In this document: piece by piece, positions 19,692-37,733 of the stretch
Position numbering within the stretch: the stretch's first letter is position 1
Layout: every line of letters begins with the position of its first letter
Origin: Candidatus Doudnabacteria bacterium RIFCSPHIGHO2_01_FULL_46_14
GTDB lineage: Bacteria; Patescibacteriota; Doudnabacteria; UBA920; 2-01-FULL-46-14
Direction of reading: 5' to 3'
NCBI GenBank assembly: GCA_001779925.1
Contig: MFEK01000016.1
Span: 78,504 to 142,503 of the forward strand
DNA length: 64,000 nt
Made by a program: the position numbers and the translations under genes
The notes under the pieces: model-generated
Told to the model about the DNA's origin: nothing
What the model saw: only the letters and a program-made list of their open reading frames with translations
The model's database searches: none

Positions 19692-19754
19692 CTCCTCCGC
19701 CGTATTGTGAAACCCTGATTCCCTATTCTACATCTACTTGGATTTTTCGCAAAA

Positions 19755-20507: not shown

Positions 20508-20520
20508 ATAATCGCATTGT

Positions 20521-20976: not shown

Positions 20977-21130
20977 CACTCCCTCCCCGTCTGGCCAAAA
21001 TAGACGGGAATTTTTTCCAGACAATATTCAACGCAATGAATGTTGTTTGAAAGGAATTATAACAATATCAAGGGGGGTCTTATCTTCCAGTAAGTCCTGA
21101 CCGAAAGGCAGGCATGGATTGGAGGAAATC

Positions 21131-21472: not shown

Positions 21473-21591
21473 CCCAAACCCTTTCTCCGCCCGTGATTTG
21501 GCTTGCGACAATTCACGGGAATTTTTTCCAGATAAGTATCGCATGGGGCGATGGTTGTCTGAAAAGAATTTGAAAACCTTTTGGAGGAATT

Positions 21592-22194: not shown

Positions 22195-22206
22195 CAAGGA
22201 GAGTTT

Positions 22207-22926: not shown

Positions 22927-22942
22927 ATTTCGTACCAATTCA

Positions 22943-22987
22943 AAACCCGGGCGAGAGCAATCTCATCGCCCGGTTTTTTATTTTGCT
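22943..22987 (+). terminator. Terminator module D, copy 1
   Basis: cccgggcgagagcaatctcatcgcccggttttttatttt. Nearly identical to 24676-24717. Confidence 0.65.
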
Positions 22988-23002
22988 AATTATCCACAGA
23001 GA

Positions 23003-23095
23003 CTCACTTACTTCACAGCCGTGAATGAAGTGAGTACTTGTTAAATTATGCTGAAGTACCCCACAGACTTCACGATCGTGAAGTCTGTGGGGTAC
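23003..23095. repeat. Two tandem palindromes of the TTCACGATCGTGAA-core family. The second is a perfect 40 bp palindrome.
   Basis: 23003-23034 is ctcacttacttcacagccgtgaatgaagtgag. 23056-23095 is gtaccccacagacttcacgatcgtgaagtctgtggggtac. Confidence 0.65.
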
Positions 23096-23096
23096 T

Positions 23097-23885
23097 TTAT
23101 TTTTCTTCTCCGGTGGACTCCCAAATAAAATAAAAAAGCGAGCGCATGGTCGCGGCGATCTCTTTTGAACGGATGATGAGTCCGATTGGCTCGCTATCTT
23201 TGCGCCATAAAGCAAAAGATGCATTGTCGCCATAAATGTAGCAGTCGAGTGGCAACGGAAATTTCTTTGAATCCAAAGTTTTTACTCGGCGCAAAAAGGC
23301 AGGATCAGTTTTTAAATTCATCTCCGCTGATCTTGCGACGCCGCTCAGCAAAATATCAATTGCAATTCCGTATTTAATTCTTCTGGGAATATAATAATTA
23401 CTCGCATACTCATCAATCGCAGGATGGATGTTTTCTAAACCTACAAAATTGAGCGTCGGCTTGCGCTGATGGAGATTGTCCAAATAGATTTTCTTTACGC
23501 CTTCTACGCCTTCATAAAAAACAATTTTCGGTTTCACAGAAGCAGTTGCTAGTAACATCCGCAGCTCTGGCAGACGTTTCTGTATTAGCTCCAGTTCAGC
23601 TGCTTTTTTCTCTACATAGCTTTCCGGATCTTCTGCCACTAGAAAGCGTCTTTTGCCAATCATGGTTTCTGAGAGAAGGCCTTTGCTGAATAAATTTGGT
23701 AGGAGTTTATAGAGTGTTGGCCTTTTTACCCCTGATTTATCTGCCAAGTGTTTAGGCAATGACCTGCCCAATTCCAAGGCTGATAAATAAATGGCTGATT
23801 CGGCCTTGGAAAGTCCTAGATTTTCTAATGTTTCTTCAATATGCATATTAAAGTGTTGCAGTTTATGACACTTTATATCATGCAT
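23097..23885 (-). CDS. TrmB-family HTH transcriptional regulator (paralogue 4)
   Basis: LGLSKAESAIYLSALELGRSLPKHLADKSGVKRPTLYKLL. Confidence 0.7.
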   Translation of the reverse strand: MHDIKCHKLQHFNMHIEETLENLGLSKAESAIYLSALELGRSLPKHLADKSGVKRPTLYKLLPNLFSKGLLSETMIGKRRFLVAEDPESYVEKKAAELELIQKRLPELRMLLATASVKPKIVFYEGVEGVKKIYLDNLHQRKPTLNFVGLENIHPAIDEYASNYYIPRRIKYGIAIDILLSGVARSAEMNLKTDPAFLRRVKTLDSKKFPLPLDCYIYGDNASFALWRKDSEPIGLIIRSKEIAATMRSLFYFIWESTGEEK

Positions 23886-23961
23886 TATTTACTTTATCTC
23901 GTCAACAATATATGATCCAAAGTCACAATAGACACAAATTGTGACAGAAATTGGAGGAACG

Positions 23962-24120
23962 ATGACAGTTGAAGAAGGAATGTCCCGTGCCATTGAGATT
24001 GCAAAACAGCTTGCTGTGCAAATTGGTTGGAAACGACAAGGTGAAACCAGTGCATATTACGCACTAACTGTTGCAATTCTCGCCGCAGCAATCTTCAGCC
24101 GCATGGGAGGAGAAGAATGA
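23962..24120 (+). CDS. Small hypothetical protein (52 aa), translationally coupled (ATGA overlap) to the next gene
   Basis: SD ttggagg before ATG 23962. Hydrophobic C-terminus. Confidence 0.4.
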   Translation: MTVEEGMSRAIEIAKQLAVQIGWKRQGETSAYYALTVAILAAAIFSRMGGEE

Positions 24121-24668
24121 TCGAACAATTTCGAGTTACAAAACATAACGGGGAGGACCCTTACTATCCCGTCCGCTTCACAGCAGTGCTTCCCGAAAAA
24201 AAGCCTCTCAAGGCCCTGGTTAAGGAAGTCGTGAAAGCCATCTGTAATTGGAAAGCTCCCTGGGGTAAGGTCTTCGAGATTTACTGCGACAATCCCGCGT
24301 ACATTCCTTACAACTATGTTAAAACTGATGAAAAACGCGGAGTGGCGGCGTTTGTCCTTCTTCAAGAAAGACCTCTCATTGCAATCCTTCAAGGACCTGC
24401 AAGAGCATGGGATGAAGCTATCTACGCAATACGTCTGGAAGGTGACGTTGTCCGAGGCTGGCGCATTGAACACGGCTCTGGTTACCACGGACCTGATGGC
24501 GATGCATTCGGCAACCACTACCGATTCGTTCTGACAGAACTCAAAGCCGGAGTGCTGCGCTACACTGCAATGACCAAAACAGATCGGAGGAAAAACGATC
24601 AAGGTGTATGGACTTCGAAAATTCAGGATACTCCAAAAGAAATAGACCTACTCGCGGAGATACCCTAA
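24117..24668 (+). CDS. Hypothetical protein (183 aa)
   Basis: SD gggaggag. No recognised motif. Confidence 0.5.
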   Translation: MIEQFRVTKHNGEDPYYPVRFTAVLPEKKPLKALVKEVVKAICNWKAPWGKVFEIYCDNPAYIPYNYVKTDEKRGVAAFVLLQERPLIAILQGPARAWDEAIYAIRLEGDVVRGWRIEHGSGYHGPDGDAFGNHYRFVLTELKAGVLRYTAMTKTDRRKNDQGVWTSKIQDTPKEIDLLAEIP

Positions 24669-24675
24669 AAATTAA

Positions 24676-24717
24676 ACCGAGGCGAGAGCAATCTCATCGC
24701 CCGGTTTTTTATTTGCC
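24676..24717 (+). terminator. Terminator module D, copy 2
   Basis: aaccgaggcgagagcaatctcatcgcccggttttttatttgcc. Confidence 0.65.
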
Positions 24718-24767
24718 TAAATGAACCACCCCCGCAGCAAGCTGACGGGGTATCATAAGCCTACGAT

Positions 24768-24806
24768 TCACCCCTCCCTAACCCTCCCCATCAAGGGGAG
24801 GGAAAA
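24768..24806. repeat. Family-A GC-rich hairpin element, copy A1
   Basis: tcacccctccctaaccctccccatcaaggggagggaaa. It is 38/39 nt identical to 58651-58690 and close to 47147-47186. Confidence 0.7.
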
Positions 24807-24858
24807 AGCAGGGAACCGCGGCAAGCCGCGGGGAATTAGACCCGGGGAGATTAAATAG

Positions 24859-24897
24859 TGACCCATAGGATTCACGATCGTGAAGTCTGTGAGTCAT
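24859..24897. repeat. TTCACGATCGTGAA-core palindrome with chimeric arms
   Basis: tgacccataggattcacgatcgtgaagtctgtgagtca. The left arm resembles the 29235 copy and the right arm the 23056 copy. Confidence 0.6.
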
Positions 24898-24945
24898 TTT
24901 ACGCTATGACCTCCCCCTAGCCCCTCCTCAATGAGGAGGGGAATT

Positions 24946-25809
24946 TCAAAACTGCCGGGATTTGCCGACGATCATTTTGATTTTTTGTTTCGCGACCTTT
25001 ATTATTGCGGGGGCTTTGGTGTAGACTTGCCCCTCAATAGAGAGCGGTAGTTTCCGCGGGCCAAGGACTTCGATCTGTTTGGCGTGCATGATGGTAGCGC
25101 CGGGCACATTGTCGAGACAGCCGGTAGCCAGCTCACGGCGGTAGCGGATAATTTGCCCGCTTGCAAGTTTGTTCAGTAATAAAATATCGAGAAGTTTGTC
25201 AGTGGGATCCCCGAGTTTGACCTTGCACCCGGCGTTATTGCGGCAATTGATAATCTGCGCGCCCAACACCTCTGAGGAAACCCGAAACGAATCATCAAGC
25301 TCAAGCTGTACCTCGAAAGGTGCTAGCCTCATGAATGTGCGCACGCTTGATAGGCCCATAAACCCGGGCTCGATCTGGGAAAACTGATTTTCTCCAAGCT
25401 CCACCTTGGATAAAAAATAATGCTCATTAATCTCACCCAAATCCAGGCTCGCTACCAAGCGACCTGCCAAAGTCTTTACTGAAAGCTCGATGTCAGGCGT
25501 GATCCCGAAAATCTGCCCTAACCTGGAATCTGAATCAAGCGAAATAAAGCCCACAGTAATGTCAGCGTGATGGCGCACCAAGGCATTGATAGCGCGGTTG
25601 AGCGTACTATCCGAGCCTACCACAATGATAGTTTTGGCCTCAAGGCCAATGGCTTGATCCACCAAAAGCTCCACGGTTCGGATCGAGGTCACCCGATAAG
25701 TCTCCCCTTCTATATGGTGTTCCGCGATCAGGTTCAGGAGGCGTCCTTGGATGCGCTCAAAATATTTGACTTCTTTGTCCTTTCCCGGATCAAAGATATA
25801 AAAATACAT
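24946..25809 (-). CDS. Diacylglycerol/lipid kinase catalytic-domain protein (YegS/BmrU-like)
   Basis: IIVVGSDSTLNRAINAL...GFISLDSD matches the DAGK_cat pattern. Confidence 0.65.
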   Translation of the reverse strand: MYFYIFDPGKDKEVKYFERIQGRLLNLIAEHHIEGETYRVTSIRTVELLVDQAIGLEAKTIIVVGSDSTLNRAINALVRHHADITVGFISLDSDSRLGQIFGITPDIELSVKTLAGRLVASLDLGEINEHYFLSKVELGENQFSQIEPGFMGLSSVRTFMRLAPFEVQLELDDSFRVSSEVLGAQIINCRNNAGCKVKLGDPTDKLLDILLLNKLASGQIIRYRRELATGCLDNVPGATIMHAKQIEVLGPRKLPLSIEGQVYTKAPAIIKVAKQKIKMIVGKSRQF

Positions 25810-25895
25810 GGCTTTACGAATTACTAATCTTTACGAATATACGAATCCGAATTCACATTCGTAAATTCGTACCAATTCGTTATTCGTAAAACTTT
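25810..25895. repeat. TACGAAT-element copy 3, palindromic
   Basis: gttttacgaataacgaattggtacgaatttacgaatg... read in the minus orientation. Fills the gap between the bactofilin stop and the kinase start. Confidence 0.6.
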
Positions 25896-26300
25896 TTATT
25901 CTTCTTCCTCTGGCAGAACGTCACTAAGACTTTCGCCGCCTTCCGGCATGCTCATCGTGCAGGAGCCGGTAAACCGCGCTCCCTCAGCAATAGACAGACG
26001 CCCGCAGGAAATATTTCCCGAGACTTTCCCTGTTTCCTGGATGAGCAGACTGTCCTTGATTTTAATCTCGCCTTTAACCTGGCCTGCGATAACCGCGTTG
26101 CCAGAATCAATGTCGGCCTCAATGTTGGCGGCCGCTCCGACATAAAGATTTTTTGTAGTTTTTATTTTTCCGCTGACCGCTCCCTCAACGCGGATATCCC
26201 CTTCGCTGACCAAATCGCCTTCGATTTTTACTGAAGCGCCGACCACTGTTTCCGGGGCGCCGCCGTCATTGTAGTCTTCTCTTTTCGACATAATACCCAT
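25896..26300 (-). CDS. Bactofilin
   Basis: Repetitive beta-helix pattern GDLVSEGDIRVEGAVSGKIKT...GEIKIKDSLLI. Confidence 0.8.
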   Translation of the reverse strand: MGIMSKREDYNDGGAPETVVGASVKIEGDLVSEGDIRVEGAVSGKIKTTKNLYVGAAANIEADIDSGNAVIAGQVKGEIKIKDSLLIQETGKVSGNISCGRLSIAEGARFTGSCTMSMPEGGESLSDVLPEEEE

Positions 26301-26360
26301 TATTAATAATTTAAAATTAAAAAGTCAAAATGGAAAATTACGGTGTAAAATTGTTAATTG

Positions 26361-26858
26361 TCATTCTACGCTTTGATCTTTCAATTTTGCATTATTAATA
26401 GCTAGTTTTTCCTCCTCAGTCAGATGATACTCGGATTTGCCGTTTGCAATGGATTTGCCATATATCCTCGTTCCTTCCCTGGCATGGAGTGAGCTTATTA
26501 CTATACCATTGTCATTCCCATCCAGTAAAGCGAGGGTAAAACTCATGTTGCCGCCTGCTTCCGCAAACGGATTGAATCGCACGAGCCCGGTTTTTTGAAC
26601 ATTAAATCGATTACTCTCCACCAACTCCTCGAGAATCTTGCCCAGCTCTTTGAGATTTTTGTTGTGAGTGGCCAGGGTTTTTTTATGCTTAAGCACGATC
26701 TCCTCGATTGACGGCACTTCTTCACCGGCTACCAGCTGGCTGTGCTGCATGCCGAAATCACGCAAACGCAAAAATAGCCAAATCAATAACAACACATTGA
26801 TTATTGATACTATTCCGACAGCCAAAATGAAGTATGGATTATTTAAAAAATCTATCAT
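26361..26858 (-). CDS. Membrane-anchored protein, possibly DUF4446-like
   Basis: N-terminal TM helix. C-terminal VRFNPFAEAGGNMSFTLALLDGNDNGIV is reminiscent of DUF4446. Confidence 0.4.
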   Translation of the reverse strand: MIDFLNNPYFILAVGIVSIINVLLLIWLFLRLRDFGMQHSQLVAGEEVPSIEEIVLKHKKTLATHNKNLKELGKILEELVESNRFNVQKTGLVRFNPFAEAGGNMSFTLALLDGNDNGIVISSLHAREGTRIYGKSIANGKSEYHLTEEEKLAINNAKLKDQSVE

Positions 26859-26893
26859 ATAATAACCGAGTCCTTAACCTTAATTTCCCTAAT

Positions 26894-27073
26894 TATACTC
26901 ACATGTCAGATAATACCCAAATAGATCCGGATTTTCAGAAAGATTACGACCACATCAGAGCTGATGTCAAAAAGGTCGTGATAAATAACATCCTGTTCGT
27001 GGGCTTGCTCGTGGCCATATATTTCGCCAATCAGCGATTCGGGTTTCTCAGCAGACTGGAGAATTTTTTTTAA
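26894..27073 (+). CDS. Small membrane protein, hypothetical
   Basis: ATG 26894. One TM helix. No clear SD. Confidence 0.3.
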   Translation, partial: YTHMSDNTQIDPDFQKDYDHIRADVKKVVINNILFVGLLVAIYFANQRFGFLSRLENFF

Positions 27074-27120
27074 TATGAAGCGCGGCATTTTTACCCCATA
27101 CTAAATTTTTGTGAATGCTT

Positions 27121-27194
27121 GGGGGTATAGTAAAGTGGTATTACGCAGCATTCGCATTGCTGAGGCTCGGGTTCGATTCCCGATACCTCCACCA
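27121..27194 (+). tRNA. tRNA-Ala(CGC)
   Basis: Acceptor GGGGGTA with G3:U70. D-stem GTAA/TTAC, anticodon stem CAGCA/TGCTG, loop TTCGCAT, CCA encoded. Confidence 0.8.
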
Positions 27195-27264
27195 CAAAAA
27201 TTTTAGTACCGGATCGCATTATAGAAATATCTACTATAAATCACTACCAAAAAAACGGCTGATA

Positions 27265-28128
27265 TTATCGCCGCTTTTTTCGTTTCTCCCAAGAAGTTTT
27301 TATCTCATTATGCCAACTGCGGTAGAGACTGGGATGAATAGGAAAACCGCCCGAGGCTGTGGCATTAAACTCGGCCACCAGACGGAGGACCTGCGTCCTG
27401 GTTACCACGCGGTCAGCAAGCGTCATCTCCATATCCGATTCAATCTCTACGATACCGTCAATGACTCTGTTGAGTTTGAATATCCAGTCCAAAAAATCAA
27501 AGATCAGAAGAGCGGGTAAAAGCAAAAAAACCAGCGACACAATCGCTGACGCTTCAATCTCATCATGACGTATAAATGACATGACGCTGACGACGATTCC
27601 GGCACTGATAATGGTGACCAAACCTAACCACATCAGACCGCGCAGTTTCATATACAATCTCTGCGCCCAAAAAGCAGATTCTGCTGTCAGCTCCAAAAGC
27701 CGCCTGGGCCCAGGAGAGGCTTTGGTATCCCAGTAATCTACCGGACGATTGCTATGCTTGAATTCATTTATCACTTTGGTTCCCGCTCGGGCTTTCCAAA
27801 TTGCAAACTGACGGCGATTCACATCCCAACCAAGGCCTTCGCTGAGTACAGATTGCCTCCTCATGGTTTCGGCCATATCAAAAGTGTCCTCGGAAACGAA
27901 ACGCAAATAGTACCCTAAAGTAAAACCGCTAAGCGCAAAAATTACCAAACCAAGCTTGATGGATGGATTCAGATGACCTTCGCTGAGCAGTACCATCATT
28001 GCCCCCATCACCATCTGAATCCCCACGCCCCACTGCCATTCACGTGCCGCTCGATTAAAAAGCAGCCCAGCCAAGTGGTTGAGCTCTTCGCCATGCTTGA
28101 TATTCTCAATAATATCCGGCTTCAACAT
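27265..28128 (-). CDS. Four-TM membrane protein, hypothetical
   Basis: Two TM hairpins, at residues ~30-75 and ~176-227, separated by a ~100 aa soluble loop and followed by a charged tail. Confidence 0.5.
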   Translation of the reverse strand: MLKPDIIENIKHGEELNHLAGLLFNRAAREWQWGVGIQMVMGAMMVLLSEGHLNPSIKLGLVIFALSGFTLGYYLRFVSEDTFDMAETMRRQSVLSEGLGWDVNRRQFAIWKARAGTKVINEFKHSNRPVDYWDTKASPGPRRLLELTAESAFWAQRLYMKLRGLMWLGLVTIISAGIVVSVMSFIRHDEIEASAIVSLVFLLLPALLIFDFLDWIFKLNRVIDGIVEIESDMEMTLADRVVTRTQVLRLVAEFNATASGGFPIHPSLYRSWHNEIKTSWEKRKKRR

Positions 28129-28306
28129 AGTGATTTCATCATAACATAAATTGAAAATGCCTTCGAAAGCGCCTGTTCCCTACTCGACGAAGGAATCTTC
28201 GGGGTGATTCCTCTCGGGTCCGCTTAAATAATTTTGTACAATTAGAAATGCTCCGGTCCATACTTGGGATCGGAGCATTTTCTTTTCACGTCAGCTCGAT
28301 AGCAAG

Positions 28307-29116
28307 CTATTGAGAGAACGCGAAATTCACAGTAATGGTGGTCACAACCGGCACCGGCTCGCCATTGAGCAGAGTTGGTTCGTAACACCACTGTTTGACT
28401 GCGTCGAGCGCAGCTTGGACGAGCAGTGGATGTCCTGTCAGCACTTTCAGTTTTTCAATCTTGCCGGCAGTGCTGATCTCAGCCTCCAAAACTACCACTC
28501 CTTGAACGCGCGCTTGTCTGGCGAGAGCTGGATATACAGGCGTAACTTTACATTTCAAATTAGCAGCCTGGACATTGCCCCCAACACGGACGCGCTCAGG
28601 AGTTTTTGGCGCTGGTGGGGGTGGAGGAGGCGGTAGAGGCGCGGCTTCTGGCGTGTCGCCGCTCGGGAATGGAAATCTTGCCCGATCAGAACCACCACCT
28701 GGAATCCCTCCCGGAACTCCGCCTGTCACACCCGTATTATCCTTGGGAGGTTCCGGAACAAAAAGATCAGGTCCTGGAATGTCCCTTGGAATAGACGGCG
28801 GTGCGGTAAATCTATCGTCTACTTTCGTCTCTGTTTCTCTGGGTTTCTCCTTTTCTTTCGTAAACACTTCAACATCAGGTGTTTTCTTTTTTTCCGGCGG
28901 CGGAGCAAACAGCTTATCAGCGAGCACGACTGCCGGAGTGTTGGTGATGAAAAGCGGCACTAGGATTAGCAATGCTACGACCAGCACTTGCGCTGCTGTC
29001 GAAAGAATCATGGCCAAACCAAACCGCTTGCGGTTTTTACCGTTGAGTTGTGAATTTTCGAACATTTTCCCTCCTACGAGGTGGGAAAGTTGCAGGTGCC
29101 CGTTTGCACAGTACAC
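28307..29116 (-). CDS. TonB C-terminal-domain protein (TM anchor, Pro-rich spacer, then a TonB_C-like domain)
   Basis: N-terminal TM helix, PPPPPPAP linker, then a C-terminal VTPVYPALARQARVQGVVVLEAEISTAGKIEKLKVLTGHPLLVQAALDAVKQWCYEP. Confidence 0.6.
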   Translation of the reverse strand: MYCANGHLQLSHLVGGKMFENSQLNGKNRKRFGLAMILSTAAQVLVVALLILVPLFITNTPAVVLADKLFAPPPEKKKTPDVEVFTKEKEKPRETETKVDDRFTAPPSIPRDIPGPDLFVPEPPKDNTGVTGGVPGGIPGGGSDRARFPFPSGDTPEAAPLPPPPPPPAPKTPERVRVGGNVQAANLKCKVTPVYPALARQARVQGVVVLEAEISTAGKIEKLKVLTGHPLLVQAALDAVKQWCYEPTLLNGEPVPVVTTITVNFAFSQ

Positions 29117-29234
29117 GTCTCGAGAGCTCTCGGCTCCCCGGCAATTTCAGCCAAAGTAGGACCGACTATGCACGTCTCCTGCAGTTACACTTAATATCAT
29201 TGTAGACCTGTCATTTAAAACGTCAAGAAAAAAT

Positions 29235-29270
29235 AACCCATAGGCTTCACGATCGTGAAGCCTATGGGTT
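29235..29270. repeat. TTCACGATCGTGAA-core perfect 36 bp palindrome
   Basis: aacccataggcttcacgatcgtgaagcctatgggtt. Confidence 0.65.
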
Positions 29271-29349
29271 ATCGGATTTGAATACAAAAAACACAAGCCG
29301 CTGGACATCCATTTCTGGACGCCAGCGGCTAAGTTATCCATGCGAGCCC

Positions 29350-30180: not shown

Positions 30181-31968
30181 TTACTCTGAAACCAGCATCC
30201 CTGCCACTATCCAAAACAGCAGACTCCCCTGCTGAAGCGACAAAAAATAGTGGTCGAAAAAGCCGAGGAACAGGAAACCTGCGAATGCAGTGAGCAGAAT
30301 TAACTTCTCCTGTCCCCCGCCTGCCATCCGGCTTGAGCCGTCAGGCGATTGGCGGGCAGGCCTATCCCCCCAGCCTCTTTTAAGAATTCCGTAAAGCACC
30401 CATAGAAATGCTCCGAGCCCGAGAATCCCAGTTTCGGCAAGAAGCAGTAAATAAATATTATGGGCAGGCTGGTGTAGATGCGGCAGGAGTTTGCCATCCA
30501 TAAAAGCGCGCGGATATTTTTCAGCCATCCCGTTATCCGACGGGATCTGCGCTAATGCTACGACAAAATTGCGCAAACCCACCCCGAAAACCGGATTGTC
30601 TTTGATCTCCCTCCAAGCGGCAGAATCAAAAAGCTGGCGATCGCGAATGCTTTCGTCCAAGACCTCCCCCATCCTCGCTCCTTCCCGAGGAGGGGGGTAA
30701 ATACGGTCTTTAATTTGTTTACCAAATAGAAACCAATTGGTACTGAAAGCAATCAATAGTAATAAAATGATAACTAATAACCGGCCGGGGAGATAAAACT
30801 GATTTCCTGTTTCACGCTGAGCTGTTTCCATCCGCGCAAACACTCTGTTTCGGTGAAACCGGCTTAGAATAAACAAAATAACTAGCGCCAAAACAGTTAC
30901 CAGCCAAACTGTTCGAGAAAAGGTCAGGGTCAGGCCAGTGGAGATGAGGATGAGGGAAAGGGCAAGAAATATTTCACGCGAAATACTTTTCACCCTCTCC
31001 CGACCCCTACCCTCCCAGCCTCCGCCCGAGGCTTCGGCGGACACAGCAAGGGAGGGGAATTCCTCCCCCTTGAGGGGGGAGGATACAGGTGGGGGTGTAG
31101 TTTGCCGAGATTTAGCATAGATAAGCGAAATACTGGCAAGCAATCCAACAAAAAGGAAGGCTCCGAGCAAATTTGGATGAGGAAACGTGCCATATGGCCG
31201 AATTATAGGAATAAAATCCTTACCACCCGCCATTATTTCATCGAAACGAAGATATTTCACAGAAATAAGGCTGTGAGTATAAAATTCCGCGATTCCCTTC
31301 ATACCTGATGTAAAAAACGTTTCACCGAAATGTTGAAATCCGAGAGAATGTTGATCAAAGTACTGAAGAATGCCGATTACCGACTGAATAACCGCTCCCG
31401 TCACAATTAGCCAAAGTGTGGTCCGTATTTCTGTGAAACGTATATTTTGTTTCATGTAGAGAAAAACCAACAAAAATTCCGATATTTTCACAAAACCGTA
31501 GAAACTAAGCAACGGTTTCTGTGAAATGGTAATAGAAATGCCTAAGATAAGCCAAAAAACCATTGTGGATTTAATGAGGACATCTTGTGAAATACTGGTG
31601 TATATCTTGTGGAATAACCCCTCACAACCTCCCCTTACCTTAAGGGGAGGAGTCATCGTTGGTTTTTCCTCCCCCTTGAAATAAGGGGGATTGCCCGCCT
31701 CGCCGAGACGAGTCGAGGTCGGGAGGGGGTCATGTTTCTGTGAAACACAAATTTCATACAACCAGCTCAATATCAGAACACAAATCAATATATCTGTCAA
31801 GTATATAAAAATTGTGTGGTAAAAAATATGATAACCAAAGAAAAAACTCGTTTCTGTGAAATACGCACGGTTGATGTTAAAGGGCAAAAGTAGAACCAAA
31901 GCATAAAAAAACAGCTTGGAAAGAGGAACACTTCTTATTATTTGGTATACGCTCTTACCTTGAGGCAT
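30181..31968 (-). CDS. O-antigen ligase (Wzy_C) family membrane protein carrying three in-frame GC-rich palindromic insertions
   Basis: Wzy_C motif HLHQPAHNIYLLLLAETGILG. Polytopic. Intact 595 aa ORF despite inserts at about 30666-30699, 31001-31097 and 31620-31725. Confidence 0.65.
   Translation of the reverse strand: MPQGKSVYQIIRSVPLSKLFFYALVLLLPFNINRAYFTETSFFFGYHIFYHTIFIYLTDILICVLILSWLYEICVSQKHDPLPTSTRLGEAGNPPYFKGEEKPTMTPPLKVRGGCEGLFHKIYTSISQDVLIKSTMVFWLILGISITISQKPLLSFYGFVKISEFLLVFLYMKQNIRFTEIRTTLWLIVTGAVIQSVIGILQYFDQHSLGFQHFGETFFTSGMKGIAEFYTHSLISVKYLRFDEIMAGGKDFIPIIRPYGTFPHPNLLGAFLFVGLLASISLIYAKSRQTTPPPVSSPLKGEEFPSLAVSAEASGGGWEGRGRERVKSISREIFLALSLILISTGLTLTFSRTVWLVTVLALVILFILSRFHRNRVFARMETAQRETGNQFYLPGRLLVIILLLLIAFSTNWFLFGKQIKDRIYPPPREGARMGEVLDESIRDRQLFDSAAWREIKDNPVFGVGLRNFVVALAQIPSDNGMAEKYPRAFMDGKLLPHLHQPAHNIYLLLLAETGILGLGAFLWVLYGILKRGWGDRPARQSPDGSSRMAGGGQEKLILLTAFAGFLFLGFFDHYFLSLQQGSLLFWIVAGMLVSE
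30666..30699. repeat. GC-rich palindrome inside a CDS
   Basis: cccccatcctcgctccttcccgaggagggggg. Confidence 0.5.
31001..31097. repeat. Composite GC-rich element (family B1) inside a CDS
   Basis: ccgcccgaggcttcggcgg ... gaattcctcccccttgaggggggaggatacaggtgggggtg. Shares its ends with 58697-58795. Confidence 0.65.
31620..31725. repeat. Cluster of GC-rich hairpins inside a CDS
   Basis: cctccccttaccttaaggggagg; cccccttgaaataaggggg; cgggaggggg. Confidence 0.55.
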
Positions 31969-31982
31969 GATATAATATTTCT

Positions 31983-32657
31983 ATGGGGCTTCCAAAAAAC
32001 AAAGTTAAAATCGGGTGGTCGCCAGAATTTGCATATGCTATTGGGCTCCTAGTAACAGACGGTAGTTTATCAAAAGATGGCCGGCACATTAACTTTACCT
32101 CGAAAGACTTAGATCTCATAGAGACTTTCAAAAAATGCCTGCATTTGGAGAACAAGGTCGGAACAAAAACTGGTTATAGAAGAATAAAAAATATTTTTCA
32201 AATACAATTTGGTGATGTAAATTTCTATCGGTTTTTACTCTCAATAGGATTGATGCCGAATAAAACCAAAATCCTTAAGAAAATAGCCATCCCCGAGGAA
32301 TACTTCTTTGATTTTTTGAGAGGACATTTTGATGGGGATGGATCATTTAATTCCTACTGGGACCCACGATGGAAATCCAGTTTTATGTTTTATATGAACT
32401 TTGTTTCCGCCAGTGAAAATCATATAAAGTGGCTTAGAAATCGCATTTTTGAAACACTGCAAATACGCGGCCATGTCAGCAAAGCTCGACTCAGCAGTTG
32501 CTATCAGTTAAGGTACGCAAAAAAAGAATCATTAAAATTGCTGGATAAGCTCTACTATAGAAAAGTTGTCTGTTTGCATCGAAAATACTTGAAAATTCGT
32601 GATGCTTTATTTATAATTAGCAAGCTTCTAAAAAAGAGCAATGCCCGGGTGGTGTAA
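31983..32657 (+). CDS. Single-chain (double-motif) LAGLIDADG homing endonuclease
   Basis: Two LAGLIDADG-like motifs, LLVTDGSLSKDG and LRGHFDGDGSF. TATAAT sits 6 nt before the ATG. The 3' end overlaps the first ~15 nt of tRNA-Leu. Confidence 0.7.
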   Translation: MGLPKNKVKIGWSPEFAYAIGLLVTDGSLSKDGRHINFTSKDLDLIETFKKCLHLENKVGTKTGYRRIKNIFQIQFGDVNFYRFLLSIGLMPNKTKILKKIAIPEEYFFDFLRGHFDGDGSFNSYWDPRWKSSFMFYMNFVSASENHIKWLRNRIFETLQIRGHVSKARLSSCYQLRYAKKESLKLLDKLYYRKVVCLHRKYLKIRDALFIISKLLKKSNARVV

Positions 32658-33705: not shown

Positions 33706-34842
33706 ATGCAGATTGAATACGACATTGAAAAAGACAAATGGAATCAGTTCGTCGCGGACAACTCCAGCCCGGCTTCTTTCCTTCAATCCTGGCAGTGGGG
33801 CGAGTTTCAAAAATCTTTGGGATTGAAAATTCACCGGCTTGGAGTTGCAGGGGAGTCAGGTGAGTTGATTGCGGTTGCGCAAGCAATTGTCCGGCCCCTA
33901 CATCTAGGGAAAACATATTTGGAAATAACAAAAGGACCGGTCGCAAAGCGACTGGCGACTGGCTATTTGCAATTAGACTTGATAATTGAGGAGCTAAAGA
34001 GGATTGGTGAAAAAGAAAAATCCATAATGATTAGAATTAATCCCCCCTATGAAGATTTAAAACTATTCGCTAATCGCTATTCGCTAATCGCCCCCGCAAT
34101 TCTCTTGCGGCAAACCGAACCCAACGACACTGTCCTTGTTGACCTCACTAAATCCGAAGACGAATTGCTCTCGAGCATGCATGAAAAATCCCGATACAAT
34201 ATCCGACTGGCTATAAAAAAAGGCGTAAGGGTTGCGGAAAAAACGACGGACCGGTCGGCTTTTGATAAATTTTTAGAATTGATTGAAGAAACTGCCAAAC
34301 GCGATGGCATCACAGTCTGGCCGCGGGAAAGATTTGAAAAATTTCGGCAGCAGTTCATGATTCATAACTCACCCCAACCCTCCCTTACCTTAAGGGAGGG
34401 AGTTCCCCCTCTTAATTTAAGAGAGGGCGGGGGTGAGTTATTGAATTCCGATCAACCTCGCGCCATCCTCCTCACAGGCTCGTTTGAAGGCAAAATTTTG
34501 GCGGCTGCCATTGTCATGCTGTTCGGCGACAGCGGGACTTATCTGTATGCCGCGTCATCTGCAGAACAAAGAAATGCTAATGTTCCCAGCCTTGTACTAT
34601 GGGAAGCGATTCGCGCCGCAAAAATGGCTGGCAAAAAAAATTATGATATGTGGGGTATTGCGCCAGCCGGCAGTGATGAATCCCATTCCTGGGCTGGCAT
34701 CACGAGATTTAAAACCCGCTACATCAAGGCGGGGGAGACAGGGATGGAGAAACACTACACCGGTACATGGGATTTGATTTTAGATAAAACTTATCACAAT
34801 GTCTTCAAACTCGGAAAAATTTTAAAAAAAATTATAAAATAA
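33706..34842 (+). CDS. FemAB-family peptidyl/aminoacyl transferase (peptidoglycan bridge formation-like) with an in-frame repeat insertion
   Basis: FemAB N-terminal pattern KWNQFV...SFLQSWQWGEFQ. A GC-rich element at 34371-34440 encodes NSPQPSLTLREGVPPLNLREGGGEL. Confidence 0.55.
   Translation: MQIEYDIEKDKWNQFVADNSSPASFLQSWQWGEFQKSLGLKIHRLGVAGESGELIAVAQAIVRPLHLGKTYLEITKGPVAKRLATGYLQLDLIIEELKRIGEKEKSIMIRINPPYEDLKLFANRYSLIAPAILLRQTEPNDTVLVDLTKSEDELLSSMHEKSRYNIRLAIKKGVRVAEKTTDRSAFDKFLELIEETAKRDGITVWPRERFEKFRQQFMIHNSPQPSLTLREGVPPLNLREGGGELLNSDQPRAILLTGSFEGKILAAAIVMLFGDSGTYLYAASSAEQRNANVPSLVLWEAIRAAKMAGKKNYDMWGIAPAGSDESHSWAGITRFKTRYIKAGETGMEKHYTGTWDLILDKTYHNVFKLGKILKKIIK
34371..34440. repeat. GC-rich hairpin element inside a CDS
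   Basis: accccaaccctcccttaccttaagggagggag ... ccccctcttaatttaagagagggcggggg. Confidence 0.6.
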
Positions 34843-37021: not shown

Positions 37022-37105
37022 GTCGAGAAATGCCTGGGGAGGGACTCGAACCCTCAATCCCTCGCGGGCCCAGGATTTTAAGTCCTGTGCGTATACCAGT
37101 TCCGC
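37022..37105 (-). tRNA. tRNA-Leu(UAA)
   Basis: Acceptor GCCTGGG/CCCAGGC, anticodon stem CAGGA/TCCTG, loop CTTAAAA, long variable arm. CCA is not encoded. Confidence 0.75.
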
Positions 37106-37122
37106 CACCCAGGCATGGGTTT

Positions 37123-37146
37123 TATCCCTCCCCTTAGGCTAAGGGG
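37123..37146. repeat. GC-rich hairpin cctccccttaggctaaggggagg overlapping the 3' end of the DUF559 gene
   Basis: Same family as 31627 and 34374. It encodes the C-terminal residues TPPSLPLA. Confidence 0.55.
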
Positions 37147-37508
37147 AGGCTAGGAGGAGTTGTTTCCATTCTGAGCTTATCCGTAACTCCTTCTATGTTT
37201 TCAATGACGTCGTTATTCCAAAATCTTAAGACTTTAATTCTTCTATTTTTCAGAAATTCGGATCTTTTCTCATCATAAACCATATTTGTAGTTTCGGCAT
37301 GTTGTCCGCCATCCAGCTCAATTGCCAATTTCATGATCGGGCAATAGAAATCAAGTATGTAAGAACCCACACTATACTGCCTGAAAAATTTCAACCCCTC
37401 AAACTGCTTGTTTCTCAAAAGTTTCCATAATCTTTTTTCTACTTCAGTTTGGTTTCTGCGCAGGCCACGGCGGTGGTTTATTGTTTCAGAATTGTTATAT
37501 AAATACAA
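37134..37508 (-). CDS. DUF559 / Vsr-like endonuclease-fold protein
   Basis: EKRLWKLLRNKQFEGLKFFRQY...ILDFYCP...ELDGGQHAE...DEKRSEFLKNRRIKVLRFWNNDV. Confidence 0.7.
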   Translation of the reverse strand: MYLYNNSETINHRRGLRRNQTEVEKRLWKLLRNKQFEGLKFFRQYSVGSYILDFYCPIMKLAIELDGGQHAETTNMVYDEKRSEFLKNRRIKVLRFWNNDVIENIEGVTDKLRMETTPPSLPLA

Positions 37509-37554
37509 TTCTTAACTCCCCTAACCCCTCTTAGCTTAAGAGGGGAATAATACT

Positions 37555-37629
37555 TGGAGGCCAGGACGGGAATCGAACCCGTGCATCGCGGTTTTGCAGA
37601 CCGCAGCGTTACCACTTCGCCACCTGGCC
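37555..37629 (-). tRNA. tRNA-Cys(GCA)
   Basis: Acceptor GGCCAGG, discriminator U73, anticodon stem GCGGT/ACCGC, loop CTGCAAA, CCA encoded. Confidence 0.8.
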
Positions 37630-37642
37630 ATAGAGACATTAT

Positions 37643-37733
37643 AACCCCTCCTAGCGAGGAGGGGTAAGGGGAGGTCTGGGGTTCTGTTCCACGACCCCCT
37701 CTATCTCCCCCTCATGAGGGGGAGAATCAAACT
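37643..37733. repeat. Three consecutive GC-rich palindromes downstream of rpsA
   Basis: cccctcctagcgaggagggg; ggggaggtctgggg...ccccctctatctcccc; tccccctcatgagggggaga. Confidence 0.6.

Follow-up and report, generated by a model that had tools for sequence, protein, structure and literature searches.

How do GC-rich palindromic hairpins come to lie inside protein-coding genes whose reading frames remain open, and what might have put them there? The question is raised by a 64-kb stretch of DNA (64,000 nucleotides, hereafter the window) from Candidatus Doudnabacteria of the Rifle aquifer, in which a first-pass annotation had noted hairpins of the same kind both between genes and within uninterrupted ones, above all a gene of the O-antigen-ligase family.

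A family of modular hairpins in the window

We scored perfectly paired hairpins in which a C-rich pyrimidine 5' arm of 7 nt or more and a purine 3' arm enclose a loop no longer than 12 nt. The window contains 15 such hairpins compared with a mean of 0.08 and a maximum of 2 in Markov-1 shuffles, confirming that the elements are real and non-random in occurrence. Tolerating mismatches raises the census to about 20. Copies at 18854, 24782, 24921 and 47161 had been overlooked in the earlier reading. Terminator-like sites overall were not in excess over shuffles, and a search of Rfam returned no family matching the hairpins.

The elements are modular. Each carries one or two 23-nt hairpins with pyrimidine/purine stems of 7-10 bp, closed by TTA...TAA around a free 3-nt loop and flanked by two arms complementary to each other, TAAC(Y)CC(Y)CC ... 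GG(R)GG(R)GTTA. Extra hairpins are often nested in loops or between arms and hairpins, and the dispersed short palindromes frequently form inverted doublets that fold into larger hairpins, a feature of REP-type sequences. Compound elements measure 45-145 nt, are bounded by the inverted-repeat arms and contain no transposase gene; no transposase domain (Y1_Tnp or other) was found anywhere in the 64-kb window. About half of the hairpins in the window lie inside intact genes, namely ligase-1 (four clusters), ligase-2 (one compound element) and FemAB (one).

Independent assemblies from other samples are 99.98-100% identical to the window over 11699-28842 and 42207-62707, which include ligase-2 and several intergenic copies, and within these regions strains of the population show no differences at element sites. 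For 27732-48946, which holds ligase-1, FemAB and the DUF559 gene described below, the source scaffold of the window (L011) is the sole comparison; ligase-1 and S1 proteins of exactly the same sequence are also recorded on other contigs. Contigs of relatives break beside elements.

In-frame insertions in two ligases and a FemAB protein

The host genes and their inserts are as follows.

30181-31968, minus strand: ligase-1, a Wzy_C (O-antigen-ligase family) membrane protein of 595 aa without a stop
31618-31728, unstranded: insert cluster 1, aa ~77-116, ..DPLPTSTRLGEAGNPPYFKGEEKPTMTPPLKVRGGCEGL; three hairpins including the canonical CCTCCCCTTAcctTAAGGGGAGG at 31628-31650
30994-31098, unstranded: insert cluster 2, aa ~290-325, TTPPPVSSPLKGEEFPSLAVSAEASGGGWEGRGRE
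30660-30702, unstranded: insert cluster 3, IYPPPREGARMGEV; decayed copy of the element CCCCTCCTCGTGAGGAGGGGTT(A/T)GGGGAGGTTAT
30301-30356 (about), unstranded: insert cluster 4, ARQSPDGSSRMAGGG; GC hairpin of CCCGCC..GGCGGG type
33706-34842, plus strand: FemAB gene, Pfam FemAB, intact
34364-34441, unstranded: canonical compound element in FemAB, in frame, cATAACTCACCCC-aa-CCCTCCCTTAcctTAAGGGAGGG-agtt-CCCCCTCTTAattTAAGAGAGGG-c-GGGGGTGAGTTATtg
57559-58920, plus strand: ligase-2, second Wzy_C gene, Pfam domain present, intact
58651-58785, unstranded: compound element in ligase-2, in frame, encoding SPLPNPPPQGEGNIKENSSPLPGSSKTVLGFGVGLRGEDKGGGGK

In ligase-1, 185 residues align to the Pfam Wzy_C profile (1.9e-18), which has 149 positions; the syntenic orthologues are 478-553 aa long. 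The three clusters originally placed in this gene were recovered with the refined borders given above and a fourth was added; the four supply ~100 aa, and ~17% of ligase-1 is element-derived. Cluster 1 (RNA fold z -4.1; pLDDT <50 at residues 79-106) is missing from the orthologues L133, L132 and L009 and is partly common to L007. Cluster 2 (fold z -3.3; pLDDT <50 at residues 286-316), missing from L133, is a compound of an arm, a hairpin with a GC hairpin nested in its loop, a second hairpin and another arm. Cluster 3 has a fold z of only -1.4 and pLDDT <50 at residues 430-436; its element lies between genes at 20519-20555 in the window, and in L007 within the ligase at the same site. Cluster 4 (pLDDT <50 at residues 536-550) is shared with L007 and missing from L132, L133 and L009. 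The ligases of L133 (493 aa) and L132 (478 aa) thus lack almost all of the four clusters. In the loop that follows IKDRI the occupant varies by orthologue, being YPPPREGARMGEV in the window, LRLTSPLKGEE in P0003 and SSPLPSPPHQGEGK... in P0012. A LAGLIDADG gene adjoins the ligase.

The ligase-2 block noted earlier is present at 58651-58785 (fold z -4.06), with a 41-nt hairpin nested in the loop of its second hairpin, and local alignments of ligase-2 to distant Wzy_C proteins end just before it. Cluster 2 of ligase-1 has the same architecture and plus-strand orientation. In both genes the plus-strand order is armL TCACCCC, hairpin CCCTCCC..GGGAGGG, hairpin TTCCTCCCCCTTG..AGGGGGGAGGA and armR GGTGGGGGTG. 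The insert peptides of the two ligases differ because the genes lie on opposite strands while the element keeps one DNA orientation, which bears out the earlier view that these are independent insertions.

The FemAB element, which had also been noticed at first pass, encodes HNSPQPSLTLREGVPPLNLREGGGELL and folds at -48.7 kcal/mol (z -6.95). In the protein model, whose mean pLDDT is 89, no segment other than this one (residues 223-246) falls below 50. Alignment by codon of filled and empty orthologues showed a sporadic distribution: P0099, P0100 and P0102 (65-72% identity) have no insert and other orthologues do. The orthologous stem reads CCCTCCC/GGGAGGG in the window and CCTCCCC/GGGGAGG in L007.

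Overall, the host ORFs are open and all retain their expected Pfam domains, which excludes interrupted pseudogenes. Syntenic ligase and FemAB orthologues either lack the segments or carry other elements at the same loops, at odds with ancestral protein sequence. As the first reading had anticipated, the inserts map to loops: they coincide with the low-pLDDT segments and are the only long low-pLDDT coils in the AlphaFold models (pTM 0.81 and 0.86). These observations support independent, sporadic, in-frame insertion of palindromic elements, and the inserts are very probably mobile elements. We found no filled/empty pair at nucleotide-level identity for any small element, and the empty sites known are too diverged for a target-site duplication to be read. 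The exact ends of the small elements, a target-site duplication and recent mobility are therefore putative.

The element in other phyla and its stop-free frame

The extra segments had been expected to be lineage-specific, but the element occurs across many phyla. CPR, Desulfobacterota, Nitrospirota, Clostridia and other groups all have the unit TAACCCCTCCC-nn-CCTCCCCTTA-nnn-TAAGGGGAGG-nn-GGGAGGGGTTA, and the exact hairpin, with 20 specified bases, is found at no fewer than 119 loci (>=119) in species-representative genomes from many phyla, where the flanking arms are conserved; taxa of some metagenome-assembled genomes are named as labelled (e.g. 'Gammaproteobacteria'). The unit also lies in frame in RuvB, RecG, TsaD and RecJ, and the Pfam-confirmed hosts of in-ORF hairpins are RuvB, PrmC, TsaD, RecJ, PfkB and RecG.

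Long ORFs contain 34 of 272 perfect hairpins (~12%). The hairpin has an always-open frame, CCT CCC CTT Ann nTA AGG GGA GG, read as PPLxxRGG, and a second frame closed by TAA. Among the 34 in-ORF copies, 29 use the always-open frame, 5 the half-open frame and none the TAA frame. The element being palindromic, its stop-free frame yields the identical peptide whichever way it is oriented, (N)P(S/T)xPPLxLRGGxEGL. The stems also covary: 126 of 150 non-ascertained [CT]7-TTA-nnn-TAA-[GA]7 sites are fully complementary, against 34 with shuffled partners, and 12 stem variants occur. Frame bias, stem covariation and the loop location of the inserts are direct observations, and the frame statistics suggest that the inserts are translated.

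Intergenic copies and the segment in RuvC

Outside genes, and in a loop of RuvC, the following copies or candidate copies were scored.

8408-8438, unstranded: hairpin CAAACCCCTCCTTCAtTGAAGGAGGGGTTTG, 13 nt past a gene stop, with a T-rich tail, terminator-like
18854-18874, unstranded: hairpin CCTCTCCTTtgcAAGGAGAGG, 12 nt upstream of the IF2 start codon
20519-20555, unstranded: hairpin plus arm CCCCTCCTCgtGAGGAGGGG-TTA-GGGGAGGTTAT, 15 nt upstream of a TrmB start, divergent region
24768-24806, unstranded: copy of the CACCCCTCCCTAACCCTCCCC(A/C)TCAAGGGGAGGGAA module, also at 47146-47186 and 58651-58687
24913-24943, unstranded: hairpin CCCCTCCTCAaTGAGGAGGGG, 5 nt past the stop of a DAGK-like gene
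37640-37727, unstranded: three adjacent hairpins between the S1 gene stop (37732) and tRNA-Cys; fold z -3.8
47146-47186, unstranded: copy upstream of a TrmB start, purine arm GGGGAGGGAAG at the expected ribosome-binding site position
49853-49894, unstranded: hairpin TCCTCCCCC..GGGGGAGGA, nested palindrome in the loop, then T8; fold z -4.4
52272-52297, unstranded: RuvC loop segment SSPSRGEG (CCCCTCGAGGGG core), 6-bp stem only

The intergenic hairpins had been taken for terminators. This holds for 8408-8438 and 49853-49894, which have T tails, the latter being the one clear intrinsic terminator; the remaining intergenic copies either lack T tails or lie upstream of starts. For example, the supposed terminator at 20521 sits in a divergent promoter region, 15 nt upstream of the TrmB start, and a near-identical element is intragenic in the L007 ligase. 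Similarly, the one assigned to 37523 is the upstream hairpin of the DUF559 cassette, at 37525. Several intergenic copies are located just upstream of start codons, where the purine arm offers a Shine-Dalgarno sequence. At 47146-47186 the true TrmB start is probably M41 (MYAETLEN), which would place that copy in the 5' UTR. At the 37640-37727 site relatives have a different short hairpin.

The insertion proposed in ruvC at 52274-52297 did not hold up. Its stem has only 6 bp, its fold z is +0.34 against shuffles and the loop varies naturally in length among RuvC homologues. For this segment only, an ordinary linker is the best reading, and a degenerate element remnant is possible.

A DUF559 gene bracketed by the same hairpins

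One ORF in the window is enclosed by the hairpins rather than interrupted by them.

37116-37554, minus strand: DUF559 cassette, between tRNA-Cys and tRNA-Leu
37525-37545, minus strand: hp1, the upstream hairpin of the cassette
37512-37521, minus strand: armR of the cassette, GGGGAGTTAA
37134-37508, minus strand: DUF559 ORF, Vsr-fold endonuclease (Pfam DUF559 4.5e-34; PDB 3hrl 1.6e-20)
37153-37161, minus strand: armL of the cassette, AACTCCTCC
37127-37149, minus strand: hp2 of the cassette, CCTCCCCTTAgccTAAGGGGAGG; its TAA is the stop codon of the gene

The hairpin at the DUF559 C-terminus had been counted as a further insertion; it is instead the conserved end of the cassette. E64, D66, H70 and D79 are invariant in the DUF559 alignment (A3). 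DUF559 has been placed in the Vsr-like/EDxHD clade (PMC3424549), whose Vsr-like EDxHD proteins are homing endonucleases, some of them free-standing (PMC3384342, PMC3424549). In the relatives L214 and L215, whose S1 is 85% identical to that of the window, tRNA-Cys and tRNA-Leu are separated by 2 nt without any hairpin, compared with 439 nt, the cassette, in the window. The cassette is hence present or absent at an otherwise conserved tRNA junction, as is characteristic of homing genes. At this tRNA locus relatives carry free-standing nuclease genes of another kind (GIY-YIG).

DUF559 is the only non-trivial recurrent ORF family in hairpin-selected loci, and an identical bracket surrounds it in 9/9 cases (the window and 8 other loci spanning phyla). 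We then considered 80 metagenomic DUF559 homologues picked by protein similarity (internal peptide patterns). A perfect hairpin lies upstream (within 110 nt) in 56/80, downstream in 62/80 and on both sides in 45/80, against a background of 0.19 per kb elsewhere in those loci. The DUF559 stop codon falls within a hairpin in 18/70. The hairpin type follows the DUF559 protein clade, distant clades having 22-38-nt terminal inverted repeats. DUF559 genes are thus associated with hairpins, and the cassette is inserted at an otherwise empty tRNA-tRNA junction.

The sequences split by the ORF, GGGGGAGTTA|TAACTCCCCC, make up a 20-bp palindrome, and this armR|armL palindrome may be the recognition site of DUF559. 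Versions without an ORF, with the order hp1-armR-short spacer-armL-hp2, were found in L096, L091, L054, L087 and L049. The small elements have arms outside and hairpins inside and the DUF559 cassette hairpins outside and arms inside; because of this inverted phase the small elements are not simple ORF deletions of the cassette.

Origin and spread of the elements

We consider it probable that the hairpins form a selfish, non-autonomous palindromic family, REPIN-, MITE- or RPE-like, of which DUF559 is the likeliest autonomous partner. Copies would land anywhere, and within genes only those that keep the frame, leave it open and fall in a tolerant loop would outlast selection; a stop-free, orientation-independent frame would pre-adapt the element to such sites. 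Surviving genic copies would be translated as disordered loops of 8-45 aa rich in Pro, Gly, Glu and Arg. Intergenic copies may be tolerated or co-opted, the purine arm contributing GGAGG (plus GTTATG) near starts and a few copies acting as terminators. The partner would be the ~125-aa DUF559 endonuclease, which has a Vsr-like fold and E-x-D...H...D residues and belongs to the same clade as the EDxHD homing endonuclease I-Bth0305I. The DUF559 gene draws a ribosome-binding site and start from the arm and its stop codon from the downstream hairpin, and its position at the centre of its own symmetric target would follow the logic of homing endonuclease genes. DUF559 would then cleave the arms or hairpins, and this cleavage, rather than another enzyme, may spread the small elements.

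That DUF559 is the mobilising enzyme is a tentative proposal, somewhat short of an even bet. Against about 20 hairpins there is a single DUF559 gene in the window, and some of the hairpin types do not adjoin it, for example CCCTCCCC-ATCAA-GGGGAGGG. As a PD-(D/E)xK nuclease it has no strand-joining activity, so that spread to non-homologous sites would depend on host repair or some further factor. It is also conceivable that DUF559 does no more than home into hairpins already present. The small elements would then spread otherwise, through an unidentified transposase acting in trans or palindrome-driven template switching, and DUF559 would be a separate homing gene using palindromes as landing sites, as some insertion sequences target REP. 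The split 20-bp palindrome is the trace expected of a gene homing into a palindromic site, hairpins nested in loops show that palindromes are generally preferred targets, and other nuclease genes share these loci, GIY-YIG at the relatives' tRNA locus and LAGLIDADG beside the ligase. We nevertheless judge this account unlikely: the empty tRNA-Cys/tRNA-Leu relatives are hairpin-free with a 2-nt spacer, meaning that the hairpins came with the gene or earlier without trace, hairpin type co-varies with the DUF559 clade and transposase domains are absent from the whole 64-kb window.

Two further explanations do without mobility. The hairpins might be functional RNA or DNA structures (terminators, mRNA stabilisers, Shine-Dalgarno sequestration, pause sites for membrane-protein insertion) selected in situ and convergent across phyla. 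Stems that co-vary around free loops would fit, as would intergenic copies 5-17 nt from stops or starts with GGAGG in the purine arm, the textbook terminator of the 49853 hairpin and its T8, and the location of the intragenic ligase copies in loops between transmembrane helices. We regard this account as quite improbable, however, given identical 45-50-nt units, arms included, in very different phyla and contexts, one DNA element used in both coding senses, sporadic presence in close orthologues, elements nested in one another, no match in Rfam, the lack of T tails in most copies, and terminator-like sites that overall do not exceed shuffles. Least credible of all is that the segments are ordinary lineage-specific, low-complexity Pro/Gly-rich linkers evolving at the protein level, or assembly artefacts. 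The inserts are indeed rich in Pro, Gly, Glu and Arg and disordered, and the RuvC loop is truly variable in nature. Yet protein-level selection does not explain perfect 8-11-bp DNA palindromes in coding sequence, the same sequences are found intergenically and one element is read in opposite senses. Independent assemblies, built from several samples and with different assemblers, show identical sequence over 11699-28842 and 42207-62707. This DNA-level evidence refutes the linker or artefact reading of the ligase and FemAB inserts.

Comparison with known repeat families

The selfish palindromic family favoured here resembles several known systems, and the likeness to Rickettsia palindromic elements (RPEs) suggested at first pass stands. 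RPEs (Ogata et al. 2000), in the account that PMC10969869 gives of them, are in-frame palindromes in unrelated housekeeping genes, each adding a short peptide to a protein that is kept, and the added segment is thought there to lie on the protein surface. The elements described here are likewise in-frame palindromes adding peptides to intact genes (ligase-1, ligase-2, FemAB), with intergenic copies too. In contrast, RPE hosts are one genus of intracellular alphaproteobacteria whereas these elements occur in CPR and many free-living phyla; their units are shorter and modular (23-nt hairpins, 45-145-nt compounds, compared with ~100-150 bp); their peptide is the same in either orientation; and they have a candidate partner nuclease, DUF559. 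We know of no partner nuclease for RPEs. Judged by host range alone (Candidatus Doudnabacteria and many other phyla, not Rickettsia), the elements behave as RPEs do without being members.

With REP/REPIN-RAYT systems (PMC3116915, PMC3733652) the family shares dispersed, many-copy, short GC-rich palindromes, doublets that fold as larger hairpins or 'clover' structures, new copies in or beside old ones, an enzyme gene flanked by repeats and a repeat type that tracks the enzyme clade. The linked protein, however, is a Vsr-fold PD-(D/E)xK-type DUF559 and not a Y1/HUH transposase. REPs end in a GTAG or CGTC tetranucleotide tag (PMC3733652), which is absent from the TAAC...GTTA ends seen here. REPs are extragenic by definition, whereas ~12% of the present hairpins (half in the window) lie in ORFs, and REPINs are largely species-specific, whereas near-identical units here cross phyla. 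Assignment to REP/REPIN-RAYT was accordingly rejected on tag, RAYT transposase and extragenic location.

Bacterial MITEs (ERIC, Correia/NEMIS, BOX, Anabaena MITEs; PMC10969869) are similarly non-autonomous, with inverted repeats and hairpin folds, and may become fused in frame with host ORFs or act as sources of promoters, terminators or ribosome-binding sites, but the present elements are shorter and made of nested perfect hairpins. We found no insertion sequence with a DDE transposase that could be the parent, and the only gene sharing the ends is DUF559, not a transposase. EDxHD homing genes occur in introns, in inteins or free-standing (PMC3239194, PMC3384342). DUF559 resembles the Vsr-like EDxHD enzyme I-Bth0305I of the same two papers in its Vsr-related fold, selfish gene and central position in a symmetric sequence. 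It differs in being a single-domain protein of ~125 aa, free-standing between hairpins with no intron or intein, with putative homing activity, and in its tie to a dispersed repeat family; no such tie is known for EDxHD enzymes. SDR and the mobile GC clusters of yeast mitochondria are very short, nesting hairpin repeats that can sit in coding regions, with sequences and hosts different from those of the present elements. To our knowledge, a DUF559 link has been reported for neither. SDR, the very small dispersed repeats of cyanobacteria, enter PMC3116915 as a cited example. Our literature search returned no prior description of the hairpin elements or of their DUF559 link.

Implications

Selfish palindromic DNA that colonises proteins in frame has so far passed for an oddity of Rickettsia. 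The small modular family described here does the same in streamlined CPR genomes and in several unrelated phyla, its hosts including core enzymes of DNA repair and tRNA modification, and in-frame elements could contribute widely to variation in protein length and to new loops. Annotation is affected as well, since gene callers run ORFs through elements (the TrmB N-terminus, the DUF559 C-terminus).

Somewhat less likely than not is the further proposal that DUF559 (PF04480), a widespread small Vsr-fold endonuclease, is the partner of pan-bacterial nested hairpin repeats, a REPIN/RAYT-like arrangement built on a PD-(D/E)xK-type nuclease and not an HUH transposase, whose derivatives with an orientation-independent stop-free frame (NPSxPPLxLRGGxEGL) may colonise loops of essential proteins (RuvB, RecG, TsaD, RecJ, FemAB, Wzy ligases) across CPR and several phyla. 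The predicted 20-bp palindromic site is open to bench testing. If the DUF559 link is true, it would provide a function for a large family of unknown function, a second and mechanistically different enzyme class in REP-type repeat/enzyme partnerships, and a tractable case of a joining-deficient nuclease disseminating short palindromes.

Hairpins in the window

Perfect hairpins with an all-pyrimidine 5' arm of at least 7 nt (at least 5 of them C), a complementary purine 3' arm and a loop of up to 12 nt occur 15 times in the window, versus a mean of 0.08 and a maximum of 2 in Markov-1 shuffles, while the mirror arrangement with the G-first arm occurs once. A mismatch-tolerant census, together with copies having long or nested loops, gives about 20. 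The principal sites are the following.

Genes and elements carrying hairpins (window coordinates)
30181-31968, minus strand: O-antigen-ligase-like Wzy_C gene (ligase-1), uninterrupted, 595 aa
57559-58920, plus strand: second Wzy_C gene (ligase-2)
33706-34842, plus strand: FemAB gene
37116-37554, minus strand: DUF559 cassette (hairpin hp1, armR, DUF559 ORF at 37134-37508, armL, hairpin hp2)
8408-8438: intergenic, terminator-like
49853-49894: intergenic, terminator-like, followed by T8
18854: intergenic, 12 nt upstream of the IF2 start
20522: intergenic in a divergent gap, 15 nt upstream of a TrmB start
24921 and 37704: intergenic, 5-7 nt past stop codons, without a T tract
47146-47186: probably in the 5' UTR of a TrmB gene, since the TrmB domain does not begin until residue 46 and there is an in-frame Met past the element

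The first-pass annotation had placed hairpins inside an intact ligase-1 frame as well as in ligase-2, FemAB and DUF559, and these positions hold; the Wzy_C domain of ligase-1 is stretched to 185 residues versus 149. It had also listed a copy in ruvC, which we dropped from the count after a fold test and homologue alignment: the stem is 6 bp, folding is no better than in shuffles (z +0.34), and the segment corresponds to a beta-hairpin loop of variable length among RuvC proteins. In the 272-aa homologue P0336, about 100 aa of the protein's N-terminal half are duplicated at this same loop. Intergenic copies had been read as terminators, which fits 8408-8438 and 49853-49894 only; at most others the T tract is absent or the site lies upstream of a start. 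An Rfam E-value scan of the whole window returned tRNAs and chance matches, with no family on the elements. Integron attC sites were rejected on sequence features, the likeness to R''/R' (RYYYAAC/GTTRRRY) being loose and in-frame copies unsuited, and CRISPR repeats, DGR hairpins and G-quadruplex motifs were set aside on the same kind of evidence.

Other repeats are also present. A second, unrelated palindrome family, CCCAYAGRCTTCACGATCGTGAAGYCTRTGGG, occupies three intergenic sites (23054-23097, 24859-24896 and 29233-29272); its core CTTCACGATCGTGAAG has 3 matches versus 0.01 expected, and the copy at 23054 has a 20-bp stem and a terminator-like score. The motif TTACGAATW occurs 11 times versus 1.4 expected (at 12576, 15473-15536, 16851, 25814-25889, 43030 and 57536), each copy in a short AT-rich, partly palindromic gap by a gene start or end, and may be an operator or promoter element.

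The window comes from a 130-kb Rifle aquifer metagenome scaffold (ENA ERZ28563803, ANAN16-1 scaffold_308) and is 99.98-100% identical to independent assemblies from other samples over 11699-28842 and 42207-62707; locus L011 (27732-48946), being from the same scaffold, cannot corroborate the ligase-1, FemAB and DUF559 region independently. The S1 protein encoded in the window is the same as one annotated in Candidatus Doudnabacteria bacterium RIFCSPHIGHO2_01_FULL. The window's G+C content is 46%, and it encodes dnaA, an rnpA-yidC cluster, 12 tRNAs and ordinary CPR housekeeping genes, with no transposase domain of any kind within the window. The replication origin probably lies near dnaA (61326-62690), at about 62-63 kb, given the location of dnaA and the minimum of cumulative GC skew there; rnpA, yidD, yidC and jag are upstream (regions 60843-61326 and 62690-64000). 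A 23S_rRNA_IVP-family gene (52704-53462) shares 4 nt with the end of ruvC and is distant from all rRNA genes. Six TrmB-family regulator paralogues are found in these 64 kb of a small CPR genome (1504-2244, 11795-12574, 19755-20507, 23097-23885, 39680-40420 and 47082-47939), several of them adjoining hairpin elements.

Intragenic copies are insertions in loops

Four lines of evidence from sequence comparison indicate that the intragenic segments are insertions and not old protein sequence. The copies at 30994-31098 in ligase-1 and 58651-58785 in ligase-2 share one plus-strand order, TCACCCC, CCCTCCC..GGGAGGG, TTCCTCCCCCTTG..AGGGGGGAGGA and ..GGTGGGGGTG, bearing out the earlier reading that the element has the same orientation in both genes. 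Because the two ligases lie on opposite strands, the same DNA yields different peptides, SSPLKGEEFPSL... in one and ...SSPLPG..LRGEDKGGGG in the other, and each copy has a different extra hairpin in a different nesting loop. Among 17 Wzy_C orthologues, Pro/Gly-rich segments occupy differing loops: SPLKGEEFPSL sits at another loop in P0003, and after the conserved IKDRI differing elements follow in the window, P0002, P0003, P0006 and P0012, with none in the remaining orthologues. At the DNA level, nearly all of the four clusters are missing from the syntenic ligases of loci L133 (493 aa) and L132 (478 aa). Similarly, a 78-nt FemAB element is present in the window and in P0096, P0097, P0098, P0101 and P0103 and is missing from P0099, P0100 and P0102 despite equal closeness (65-72% identity), and further FemAB orthologues carry other inserts at other positions. 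Finally, the element CCCCTCCTCGTGAGGAGGGGTT(A/T)GGGGAGGTTAT is intergenic in the window (20519) and intragenic in the ligase of locus L007.

In conceptual translation, junctions between host and insert read, for example, ...TMTPPLKVRGGCEGLFHK and ...FMIHNSPQPSLTLR. For ligase-2, alignments to distant paralogues, the only homologues compared, end before the insert. An all-against-all comparison of the collected loci revealed no element-sized indel between near-identical loci, and neither this comparison nor the population assemblies, which are identical wherever they overlap the window, yielded a target-site duplication or a nucleotide-resolution empty site for the small elements.

A location in loops had been anticipated and agrees with AlphaFold models. 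In ligase-1 (pLDDT 77, pTM 0.81) the sole long segments below pLDDT 50 are residues 79-106, 286-316, 430-436 and 536-550, which are the four insert clusters, all predicted as coil between helices. The FemAB model (pLDDT 89) has a single low segment, residues 223-246, equal to the insert.

Breadth of the family and its reading frame

An exact scan for CCTCCCCTTANNNTAAGGGGAGG, with one genome per species, recovered at least 119 loci. Among the matches listed, CPR hosts were Uhr-, Gottesman-, Doudna-, Nomura-, Portnoy-, Dojka- and Saccharibacteria and other hosts were Geobacterales, Desulfobacterota, Nitrospirota, Myxococcota and Clostridia, with further MAGs labelled Gammaproteobacteria (labels as recorded). 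As judged from these matches, the palindrome family is not specific to one lineage. Within the same list, TAACCCCTCC(C) lies 2-3 nt upstream of 65 of the 135 copies and GGGAGGGGTTA downstream of 57, both flanking 14, and the 3-nt hairpin loop takes 38 distinct values. Copies with a single adjacent arm continue into a second hairpin, typically CCCCCTCTTAnnnTAAGAGGGGG, followed by the other arm, a compound arrangement that the FemAB insert matches exactly. Long ORFs contain 13 of the 135 listed copies, and Pfam-confirmed hosts comprise RuvB, PrmC, TsaD, RecJ, PfkB, RecG, an AMP-binding enzyme and a PMT_2 protein.

Read as CCT CCC CTT Ann nTA AGG GGA GG, the hairpin encodes PPLxxRGG, or (N)P(S/T)xPPLxLRGGxEGL with its arms. 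Apart from its loop the element is its own reverse complement, so the peptide comes out the same from either strand. The next frame holds TAA, and the third is open only where the first base of the loop is a pyrimidine. Out of 272 perfect TTA-nnn-TAA hairpins in all sequence collected, 34 fall within long ORFs, where 29 use the open frame, 5 the half-open and 0 the closed one, the distribution expected of a translational filter. This bias argues that the segments are translated, not removed.

At [CT]7-TTA-nnn-TAA-[GA]7 sites, leaving out the scan pattern, 126 of 150 stems are perfectly complementary versus 34 with shuffled partners, and 12 stem variants occur. The orthologous FemAB hairpin itself reads CCCTCCC/GGGAGGG in the window and L133 and CCTCCCC/GGGGAGG in L007. 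Structural selection, arm-to-arm correction in DNA palindromes and replacement by another copy are all possible causes of this stem upkeep. The exact hairpin with arms is also found in nine IMG/VR contigs (L217-L225), none of which carries DUF559; these could be a vector of cross-phylum spread or cellular DNA misclassified as viral.

A DUF559 nuclease gene is associated with the hairpins

When ORFs of the at least 119 hairpin-selected loci were clustered, the largest cluster, ABC-transporter ATPases, was dismissed as ubiquitous, and DUF559 (about 125 aa) was the sole other recurrent family among the loci listed. All nine cases, including the window's gene, share one layout. Upstream are CCCCCTCTTAnnnTAAGAGGGGG and (TTA)GGGGGAGTTA, with the start codon 0-15 nt on, often as GTTATG; downstream the ORF reads through (C)TAAC(Y)CC(Y)CC-nn-CCTCCCCTTAnnn and ends at the TAA of the hairpin 3' arm, giving a C-terminus ..LTPPxLPL. 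As this sample was biased by its selection on hairpins, we fetched 80 metagenomic homologues by two internal peptide patterns. A perfect hairpin (7 bp or longer) was present within 110 nt upstream in 56/80, downstream in 62/80 and on both sides in 45/80, compared with a background of 0.19 per kb (about 0.03 per flank) elsewhere in the same loci. Hairpin type tracks the DUF559 protein clade: distant homologues have CCCTCTCCCnnnnGGGAGAGGG flanks and arms GGGGTGAGGG/CCCTCACCCC, with inverted repeats of 22-38 nt. In 18 of 70 DUF559 genes the stop codon falls within a hairpin. ORF-less versions, hp1-armR-9 to 23 nt-armL-hp2, occur in several phyla. A control comparing inverted with direct repeats on the flanks was uninformative, since palindromes match in both directions.

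Across phyla, these nine proteins share 49-58% identity, a high value for hosts so far apart. In the PDB, the protein of the window matches entry 3hrl ('endonuclease-like protein'). It falls within the Vsr/DUF559 clade, a group that contains I-Bth0305I, a homing endonuclease of the EDxHD family (PMC3424549), known in introns, inteins and free-standing genes (PMC3384342, PMC3424549); our search of the literature on DUF559 found nothing on repeats. Among other arrangements, a Desulfuromonadaceae MAG (L028, 2714-4117) has 8 hairpin copies in 1.4 kb as an array next to a DUF559 gene, including four tandem units of about 220 bp with an arm and two hairpins each. In one DUF559 clade (L147, L153, L154, L160, L171, L172 and L193), the whole cassette lies within an outer inverted repeat, about 24 nt long, GGTTCTTCCGGCTTTTGTGTGGGT ... 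ACCCACAAAAGCCGGAAGAACC.

The tRNA locus shows that the DUF559 cassette is itself an insertion. Between tRNA-Cys (37555-37629) and tRNA-Leu (37030-37115), the window has a 439-nt gap filled exactly by hp1-armR-DUF559-armL-hp2, and the same tRNAs are 2 nt apart in Doudnabacteria L214 and L215, whose S1 protein is 85% identical. Hairpins are absent from these empty sites and are therefore part of the cassette. In L216 (S1 84% identical) the same hp1 follows tRNA-Cys, and the contig then ends.

Several other features were seen at these loci. GIY-YIG ORFs with their own flanking hairpins lie at the S1/tRNA-Cys/tRNA-Leu locus of L214 (6213-6503) and L215 (about 6478-6760), and the locus appears to be a hotspot of selfish nuclease genes; a LAGLIDADG-like ORF adjoins the ligase in the window (31983-32657) and in L133 (6196-6858). 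The tRNA-Cys region of L216 (6270-6470) contains a GC palindrome, CTGCCCGCC...GGCAGGCGGGC, inside which part of tRNA-Cys looks duplicated, and its 'CTGCCCGC' hairpin type is also nested in the L007 FemAB insert and occurs twice in P0098 (GPPAxQAGALRAG). The three independent assemblies L214, L215 and L216 end 280-940 nt past the S1 gene, just after the S1-tRNA region. As this is the region that holds hairpins and the DUF559 cassette in the window, the breaks suggest that the repeats fragment metagenome assemblies.

A putative family of selfish palindromes

We consider it very probable that these sequences form a modular family of selfish palindromic elements working like REPINs or Rickettsia palindromic elements (RPEs), whose in-frame survivors would add disordered loops to host proteins. 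The family behaves as RPEs, REP/RAYT and MITEs all do, yet it belongs to neither of the first two. It is set apart from RPEs by its different host range, sequences not having been compared, and from REP/RAYT by having no GTAG or CGTC tag and no Y1 transposase and by not being extragenic. MITE membership is not demonstrable, as no target-site duplication or parent insertion sequence was found.

The most probable partner would be the DUF559 nuclease. Its gene occupies the middle of the 20-bp palindrome GGGGGAGTTA|TAACTCCCCC, as a gene for a homing endonuclease would. We regard its link to element spread as tentative, a little short of an even chance. Four points weigh on this estimate. A DUF559-type nuclease lacks joining activity. 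The small elements, with their arms outermost and their hairpins within, invert the order seen in the cassette. Neither polymorphism nor an empty site at nucleotide resolution was found for these elements, and DUF559 might only home into palindromes spread by other means.

Our literature search found no paper with these sequences or peptides, nor one joining CPR with MITE or REP elements. In-frame colonisation of genes by palindromic elements is already known; the family described here, its breadth, its orientation-independent frame and its association with DUF559 appear to be undescribed in the searched literature.
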